From NCBI RefSeq assembly GCF_050320075.1, contig NZ_CP190018.1: a DNA stretch of 64,000 nt. One strand, 5' to 3'. Shown one piece after another: positions 20,841 to 20,968 of the stretch (position 1 is the first letter of the stretch; the number at the start of each line of letters is the position of its first letter). The DNA comes from Escherichia coli. Its GTDB lineage: Bacteria > Pseudomonadota > Gammaproteobacteria > Enterobacterales > Enterobacteriaceae. The notes beneath the pieces are model-generated. The model saw only the letters and a program-made list of their open reading frames with translations. It did not search any database and was not told the origin of the DNA. The position numbers were made by a program, and so were the translations under genes.

Positions 20841-20968
20841 TTGCGGGTTATGCGGGTTATCCTGTGTATAAGTTAATTAACTGCATGATTAAAAAGGAAA
20901 TCAATAACCCGCACGTAACCCGCAAAACGGCAGTTATAACCCGCAAATGTGCGATTGTAACCCGCAAA
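20841..20968. repeat. iteron cluster 1: six copies of GCGGGTTA(T) in both orientations
   Basis: ttgcgggttatgcgggttat ... taacccgcacgtaacccgcaaa ... ataacccgcaaa ... gtaacccgcaaa. Confidence 0.6.

Follow-up and report, generated by a model that had tools for sequence, protein, structure and literature searches.

A probable two-module origin, split by 10.6 kb and joined to a cos site, in an Escherichia coli PICI

The window analyzed here, a 64,000-nucleotide stretch of an Escherichia coli genome (contig NZ_CP190018.1) with 100% identity to strain YZLc1-3, contains a phage satellite whose replication origin has probably been divided in two. Two clusters of a short iteron lie in this element, and cluster 1 is most likely the canonical PICI/SaPI origin unit (module A), while cluster 2 is most likely its mirror-image partner (module B). 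We consider it reasonably likely that A and B are the two halves of a single PICI origin, with B fused to cos and located 10.6 kb from A. The evidence consists of the motif clusters and their geometry, the covariation of the iterons with the C-terminal domain (CTD) of the initiator, the homology of the distal module to modules found next to A in relatives, selection on the distal iterons and the homology of the neighboring cos, each demonstrated by sequence comparison.

Gene content of the island

The island occupies positions 12913-32076 (19,164 bp) and is bounded by a 16-bp direct repeat, TTCCCTTCGCCCGCTC. Its features are as follows.

12857-12928, + strand: tRNA-Gly(CCC), the 3' end of which holds attL, with the core TTCCCTTCGCCCGCTC at 12913-12928 (ARAGORN, Rfam, exact repeat search)
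13056-14309, + strand: tyrosine integrase (NCBIfam, PHROG, RefSeq annotation)
15463-15660, + strand: AlpA-like HTH excisionase/regulator (PHROG "excisionase and transcriptional regulator", 1.6e-11)
18692-20818, + strand: Rep, 708-aa DUF927 primase/helicase-type initiator
20843-20965, unstranded: putative origin module A (cluster 1), with a tight iteron pair at 20843-20860, a 43-bp AT-rich spacer at 20861-20903 and four opposed iterons at 20904-20965
21029-21454, + strand: SSB gene, followed by a ProQ/FinO-family gene (21491-21988) and a perC pseudogene, a conserved PICI accessory block (NCBIfam, RefSeq)
23054-30715, + strand: cargo operon of four genes (843, 686, 918 and 104 aa), in the place where sister elements have the capsid/packaging module (comparison with loci L002 and L003)
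31421-31572, unstranded: putative origin module B (cluster 2), the mirror of A, with three 21-bp-phased iterons at 31421-31471, a 75-bp spacer at 31472-31546 and three tight opposed iterons at 31547-31572
31576-31597, unstranded: TA-box, the near-palindrome GTTTTGTATATATATACGAAAA (inverted repeat I15) at the outer edge of module B
31608-31690, + strand: phiP27-type cos region, with the core CGCCCGCCTC at 31651-31660
32061-32076, + strand: attR core TTCCCTTCGCCCGCTC (exact repeat; megablast homology break at ~32078 in 17 genomes)

Reading rightward, the order is integrase, int-alpA RNA, AlpA-like regulator, Ant/BRO proteins, Icd-like protein, DUF4222, DUF927 Rep, SSB, ProQ/FinO, perC pseudogene and the four cargo genes, with all of the main genes on the + strand. 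The int-alpA RNA (Rfam RF02996, 46.9 bits) is at 14354-14421, between the integrase gene and the next ORF. Of the features by which PICIs are recognized, the element has an integrase, att repeats in tRNA-Gly, alpA, rep, a predicted ori 3' of rep and a size within 10-20 kb. The element is not itself a capsid-forming PICI (cf-PICI), since the four products of 23054-30715 have no Pfam, NCBIfam or PADLOC match. Genes for capsid, portal, protease, HNH, TerS and TerL are absent from the island, a tblastn search with a cf-PICI TerL found nothing in window-type loci, and no lysis or tail genes appear in the island annotation.

Among the relatives that share the left half are Sakai prophage Sp7, of the EcCIEDL933 type, and elements that have inserted into the terL genes of prophages; in these, capsid, protease, portal, HNH, TerS and TerL genes occupy the place of the four cargo genes. 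Because the left half is common to these capsid-gene-bearing relatives, the island is, judged by its gene content, a Gram-negative PICI built on a cf-PICI backbone, in which the packaging module has been exchanged for cargo. The four cargo genes had no match in Pfam, NCBIfam or PADLOC, and could represent an undescribed accessory or anti-phage system. The operon recurs elsewhere: in L059 it lies in a different part of the chromosome, together with a left end of the Rha/GIY-YIG type, and L064 and L066 are IMG/VR contigs that carry it. An earlier note on this DNA had placed the cargo operon between the two iteron clusters, and 23054-30715 does fall between 20965 and 31421. The note had also proposed that the element is probably replication-competent after excision, which is plausible because int, alpA, rep, attL and attR are all intact.

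Iteron clusters and the Rep initiator

The iteron GCGGGTTAY is present in six copies at 20843-20965 and in six more at 31421-31572, the distance from the start of cluster 1 to the start of cluster 2 being 10,578 bp. Cluster 1 begins 25 bp past the stop codon of the gene for the 708-aa Walker-A protein (18692-20818). It has GCGGGTTAT on the + strand at 20843 and 20852, 9 bp apart, then a 43-bp spacer (20861-20903) of 72% AT, and then GCGGGTTAT/C on the - strand at 20904, 20915, 20936 and 20957, with spacings of 11, 21 and 21 bp. In cluster 2, GCGGGTTAT is found on the + strand at 31421, 31442 and 31463, with 21-bp phasing, and a 75-bp spacer (31472-31546) of 73% AT separates these copies from CCGGGTTAT at 31547, GCGGGTTAC at 31555 and GCGGGTTAT at 31564 on the - strand, 8-9 bp apart. 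The two clusters are thus mirror images: one runs from a tight pair through an AT spacer to 21-bp-phased copies, and the other has these parts in the opposite order (repeat finder, inverted repeats I1 and I2), a symmetry on which the earlier note did not comment.

Matches to the motif with at most one mismatch number 36 in the window, compared to an expectation of 13.0 +/- 3.4; none of 100 shuffles reached 36, and 12 of the 36 are located in the two clusters. By a Poisson estimate, at least six matches would fall within 126-152 bp at some place in the window with a probability of about 2-5e-10, in round terms 1e-10. The earlier note is therefore borne out in its description of the DNA: two real clusters of one motif with six copies each, the first in both orientations (two + and four -) directly 3' of a Walker-A replication gene, the second with three plus three inverted copies around an AT-rich spacer, and about 10.5 kb between them. 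The Rfam search of the island matched only the tRNA and the int-alpA RNA, with no known RNA family at either cluster. Both module spacers and the TA-box belong to the least stable 1% of duplex in the island; ranked by instability, the module A spacer is at the 99th percentile and the TA-box at the 99.9th.

The product of 18692-20818 matches Pfam DUF927 (1.6e-46) and, by phmmer, SaPIbov1 Rep (PDB 8tch, 2.2e-14) and SCCmec Cch (5dgk, 9e-4). By homology it is a DUF927 self-loading helicase related to these two proteins, and it has what is expected of a SaPI-type initiator, homology to the SaPI Rep/Cch group of DUF927, MCM-like AAA+ proteins. Its layout comprises a shuffled N-terminal domain (~1-150), a helicase core (~150-590, with Walker A near residue 355) and a CTD (~591-708). 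Over its N-terminal ~130 aa (18692-19140, residues 1-150) Rep shares 41-83% identity with the beginning of a RepA-family helicase of other PICIs (L013), while the remaining parts of the proteins are unrelated, which indicates domain shuffling among satellite initiators. Initiators with this shuffled N-terminus are always encoded downstream of a DUF4222 gene. The last ~118 aa were modelled as a winged helix, using an alignment from a representative-sequence search; an earlier prediction from 13 sequences (pLDDT 43) was discarded. A homologue search with the CTD alone retrieved only 20 proteins, mostly fragmentary, and the CTD profile had no match among PDB sequences.

In SaPI origins, opposed iterons around an AT-rich region directly 3' of rep are bound by the winged helix of the Rep CTD (PMC9371898). 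A SaPI-like origin organization has been reported for E. coli PICIs, where rep-ori supported plasmid replication (PMC6092414). Module A has this arrangement, with at least two opposed iterons on each side of an AT-rich region directly 3' of rep. Between elements, the helicase core of Rep can be up to 96-99% identical across iteron classes, whereas the last ~118 residues are ~40% identical. In 107 loci drawn from E. coli genomes, other Enterobacterales and IMG/VR, CTD clusters (at least 75% identity) map one-to-one onto the six iteron classes listed below. In the automatic classification of loci, some scores were corrected by inspection, where a chance GACCCGCAG in ssb had raised the counts or degenerate tight copies of the TTGTCCCA class had dropped below the threshold.

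GCGGGTTA: 49 loci
GTTGGTTCA: 33 loci
TTGTCCC: 16 loci
GTGGGTTA: 6 loci
CTTRTCCC: 2 loci
CGGTTCA: 1 locus

This covariation argues strongly, though indirectly, that the Rep CTD binds the motif, and together with the model it suggests that Rep has an iteron-specifying C-terminal winged helix. Because the same motif, co-varying with the CTD of the adjacent Rep, makes up clusters 1 and 2, both are very probably genuine Rep sites.

Composite origins in relatives and the cos site beside module B

In most of the relatives (~60 elements), modules A and B are adjacent 3' of rep and form a composite origin of ~300 bp. The adjacent pattern is '++-----++---', in which A has spacings [9][52-65][11,21,21] and is followed by a short linker and by B with spacings [21-25,21][51-93][8-9,9]. 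Pattern and spacings are conserved from Escherichia to Pantoea and Rahnella, the spacings being almost constant between genera and iteron classes, and the geometry of module A is conserved across the six iteron classes. A TA-rich near-palindrome, GTTTTGTWTATATATACGAAAA, comes after module B in composite origins; this TA-box borders module B on its outer side in E. coli, Pantoea, Winslowiella and further genera, and in adjacent-type elements it lies 15-25 bp upstream of the start of the next gene. Because A and B are side by side in most relatives, the ~300-bp dyad-symmetric origin with two AT-rich regions is, on this comparison, the ancestral or commonest state.

The window element and a group of genuine cf-PICIs have a different arrangement, in which the SSB gene is directly 3' of A, and B is found 7.7-10.6 kb downstream, at the extreme right end. 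The distal B of the window is homologous to the adjacent B of Sakai Sp7 in its spacer as well as in its iterons. The resemblance to an ori/crr pair pointed out in the earlier note does not extend to the structure of cluster 2, which is no crr-type tandem repeat but the mirror module of a composite origin, and which most relatives have directly next to cluster 1.

Beginning at most 24 bp past the TA-box, the 83-bp stretch 31608-31690 is 84.5% identical (blastn) to the annotated cos-site region of phiP27, a feature that the earlier note had missed. The core in the window, CGCCCGCCTC, agrees with the 10-nt phiP27 cos, CGCCCGCCCC, at 9 of 10 positions, and the flanks are almost identical. The segment also matches the termini (first ~100 nt) of linear Burkholderia phage genomes. 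A resemblance to lambda/P2-type cos, noticed by eye, was dropped in favor of the blastn match to phiP27. All 27 of the distal modules examined have the layout iterons, TA-box, cos, with B ~80 bp from the cos core and on the phiP27-upstream side of cos rather than the terS-proximal side. The TA-box is the constant junction in this layout: on its two sides, two iteron classes and four or more cos variants occur in changing combinations. In phiP27 and in cf-PICIs a cos of the phiP27/HK97 type lies between HNH and terS, and the cf-PICIs with a distal module keep this cos as well; the window cos, in contrast, stands alone at the right end behind the Rep iterons. The phiP27-type cos points to the type of helper. 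Since the island is without terminase genes, it presumably needs a phiP27/HK97-type helper or another satellite for packaging.

Comparison with known systems helps to delimit what is new. The Rep-ori systems of SaPIs and PICIs (SaPIbov1, SaPI1, SaPI5, EcCICFT073) share with the window a self-loading hexameric helicase-initiator, a CTD winged helix and opposed iterons 3' of rep (PMC9371898, PMC6092414), and SaPIbov1 Rep is a sequence and structural homologue of the window Rep. In the open-access papers searched, however, each of these origins is presented as one unit that comes after pri/rep, whereas the family to which the window belongs adds a mirror module with a TA palindrome and, in the lineage of the window, has this second module 7.7-10.6 kb away and fused to cos. 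The cf-PICIs of the EcCIEDL933 (Sakai Sp7) type have the same int-alpA-...-DUF4222-DUF927 rep-ssb-(proQ)-perC backbone. Between Sakai Sp7 and the window, rep DNA is 87% identical, the cos is of the phiP27/HK97 type and the iteron GCGGGTTAY is identical. Sakai Sp7 differs in that A and B are adjacent and there is no distal module, and cf-PICIs carry capsid, portal, protease, HNH, TerS and TerL genes where the window element has its four cargo genes. SCCmec elements, which have the Cch/Cch2 helicases, do not belong to the phage satellites, and a split iteron origin of this kind beside a cos site is not described for them (PMC7581432). In the open-access literature we found no description of a two-module composite origin, of a natural split with B fused to cos or of orphan non-cognate modules. 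The PICI origin unit and the Rep family are thus already known, and the composite origin, the split with cos fusion and the orphan modules appear to be new.

Role of the distal module

Nineteen non-redundant A-only elements have a right end that is visible and undeleted, and all 19 carry a distal B that is exactly cognate (fifteen with GCGGGTTAT, four with ACTTGTCCCA), although this regularity may in part be inherited, the split elements going back to perhaps no more than two ancestors. Other A-only loci stand outside this count. The L085-type contigs end ~0.7 kb before the expected B, L065 ends in an IS, and L135 (13044-13900, strain STEC388) is a decayed window-type copy in which module B, cos and attR were lost through an IS1-associated deletion. 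A possible exception to the A-only rule is L127, of the GTTGGTTCA class, where module A at 9452-9590 has no cognate B or TA-box in the 10 kb of downstream sequence available. Within the distal modules, the iterons are conserved more strongly than their surroundings. In 20 unique GCGGGTTA-type distal modules, 8% of the iteron columns are variable, compared to 51% of the intra-module spacer columns (Fisher p = 4e-8), which marks the distal iterons, at the level of the alignment, as being under selection.

The way in which a split origin could function can be sketched from these features. The C-terminal winged helix of Rep would read the iteron GCGGGTTAY, both clusters being arrays of its site. 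After helper-induced excision, Rep hexamers would bind both arrays and melt the AT-rich spacers and the TA palindrome. Two iteron-flanked AT-rich regions would be the expected arrangement for loading two helicase hexamers in opposite orientation, and the mirror-image modules could supply the two orientations for the establishment of bidirectional forks. In the 19-kb circle, the separated A and B might be joined by Rep-Rep contacts or looping, like ori and crr of P4, or might each serve one helicase or fork. Replication would yield concatemers, to be cleaved by the helper HNH/TerS/TerL at the cos beside module B. All of these steps, from the binding of Rep and the melting of DNA to the cooperation of A with B and packaging, are inferred.

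An alternative is that module A alone serves as the origin and cluster 2 has no function: once adjacent to A, it would have been linked to cos by a rearrangement and would now persist as a passenger, since selection acts on cos and the right-end block is moved by recombination from satellite to satellite. Module B may be dispensable, since module A alone resembles a complete SaPI-type origin and fits the published definition of the SaPI/PICI origin (PMC9371898, PMC6092414). Also consistent with a passenger is the role of the TA-box as a constant junction for the exchange of iteron blocks and cos variants, as are the following right-end modules of iterons, TA-box and cos, in which the iterons are not cognate to the initiator of the element.

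L013, 16005-16310, and L014: intact GCGGGTTAT distal module; own initiator a RepA-family helicase with AAAGTGGGGAG iterons
L058, 19030-19330, and L134 (likewise non-cognate): intact GCGGGTTAT distal module; DUF927 class TTGTCCC with a complete adjacent origin
L060, 16000-16290: intact GCGGGTTAT distal module; own primase-family initiator with CTGTCTACC iterons

Because they are found in satellites with unrelated or other-class origins, distal modules can evidently move together with cos whether or not the Rep is cognate. A near-cognate distal copy is also present in two further elements in which A and B adjoin. However, the low variability of the distal iterons relative to their spacers holds across module lineages that differ by ~14% overall, the 19 informative A-only elements all have an exactly cognate B, and the mismatched distal modules occur only where a complete origin adjoins rep. 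This last restriction is what a requirement for B in cis would predict, although common descent could give the same picture. Taken together, we regard a mere passenger as unlikely, while allowing it some weight; if module B were dispensable, only an ordinary PICI origin and a recombination relic would be left.

Cluster 2 could instead serve packaging or regulation, with Rep at B aiding the terminase at cos in a cosB-like manner, or controlling right-end transcription across attP into int in the excised circle. The constant distance of ~80 bp between distal B and the cos core would fit the first of these roles, as would the satellite-specific recognition elements known next to cosN in PICI cos sites (PMC6739421); the position of the TA-box shortly upstream of the next gene in adjacent-type elements would fit the second. 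Yet in ~60 elements B adjoins A, a long way from cos, whose place in these elements is between HNH and terS, and in distal modules B is on the phiP27-upstream rather than the terS-proximal side of cos, with iteron class and cos variant re-assorting independently. Nor did a consensus scan predict a sigma-70-like promoter at the TA-box, and in L123 a terminator-like hairpin, not a gene, comes after it. We therefore hold a purely packaging or regulatory function to be quite improbable.

The earlier note had likened the two clusters to the ori and crr of P4. The P4 replicon requires both crr and ori in cis. In the P4 annotation, crr (4291-4590) is directly 3' of alpha, and ori (9086-9809) is 4.7 kb away, and the window likewise has one short repeat in two separated clusters, one of them directly 3' of the initiator gene. 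Alpha and the window Rep are also alike in being multidomain primase/helicase proteins with a C-terminal origin-binding domain, and a tight 9-bp pair opens module A as well as each P4 crr unit. The two-cluster architecture in the analogy therefore stands, but the kinship does not. In a single BLASTP comparison, Rep had no significant similarity to P4 alpha (best E 0.12 over 51 residues), and Rep is a DUF927/SaPI-Rep homologue. The island has a different gene set, with none of the P4 genes sid, psu, delta, epsilon or cI RNA; module B is one unit in mirror orientation to A, unlike crr with its two 120-bp repeats in tandem; and the cos is of the phiP27 type, not the P2/P4 type. For these reasons we rejected membership of the P4 group, the element being a PICI and not a P4-like satellite, and a true ori/crr system, with a P4-alpha-type protein and two cis sites, is highly improbable.

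The reading that we favor remains that of two origin halves, A and B, acting together. PICI/SaPI origins have so far been treated as one compact unit 3' of rep. Our analysis suggests that enterobacterial satellites with a DUF927 Rep, including the prototypical cf-PICI of O157:H7, use a two-module, dyad-symmetric origin, and that the modules can work kilobases apart, with one of them fused to the packaging site. If true, these elements would be a natural system in which to study how self-loading MCM-like helicases get placed in two orientations, and the swapping of origin specificity would be explained by the joint exchange of CTD and iterons. It would also bear on the delimitation of satellites, on replication engineering for delivery vectors and on the competition of co-resident satellites.

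A more speculative idea, to which we give little credence at present, is that the distal block of iterons, TA-box and cos is a portable replication-and-packaging cassette. In A-only satellites, such a cassette would be the indispensable second half of the origin, coupling a Rep site to the site of terminase cutting. In satellites with RepA-type, primase-type or other-class DUF927 replicons, the conserved orphan GCGGGTTAT arrays might enable replication in trans by a co-resident GCGGGTTAY-specific Rep, or might handcuff and compete with that Rep. If so, these arrays would amount to satellite-on-satellite piracy, or to incompatibility among the several PICIs of one E. coli genome.

Some further observations concern the right ends. 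In some of them (L016, 4859-5241; L047, 3459-3860) two cos-like sequences are found ~340 bp apart, which recalls EcCICFT073, where two cos sites have reportedly been found. In the window, an annotated 151-aa ORF on the - strand (31670-32125) begins outside the island and crosses attR, with a 70-bp match (84%) to phage P1 rlfB, and a terminator-like hairpin is located on the - strand at 31713-31696. Directly past attR, at ~32100-45500, is a second low-GC (35-40%) element, which encodes a recombinase-family protein, a "major capsid protein", many small hypothetical products and, at ~44.3-45.5 kb on the - strand, a tyrosine integrase. An IS1 and what is left of the ETT2 type III secretion island (ygeH among others) come next.
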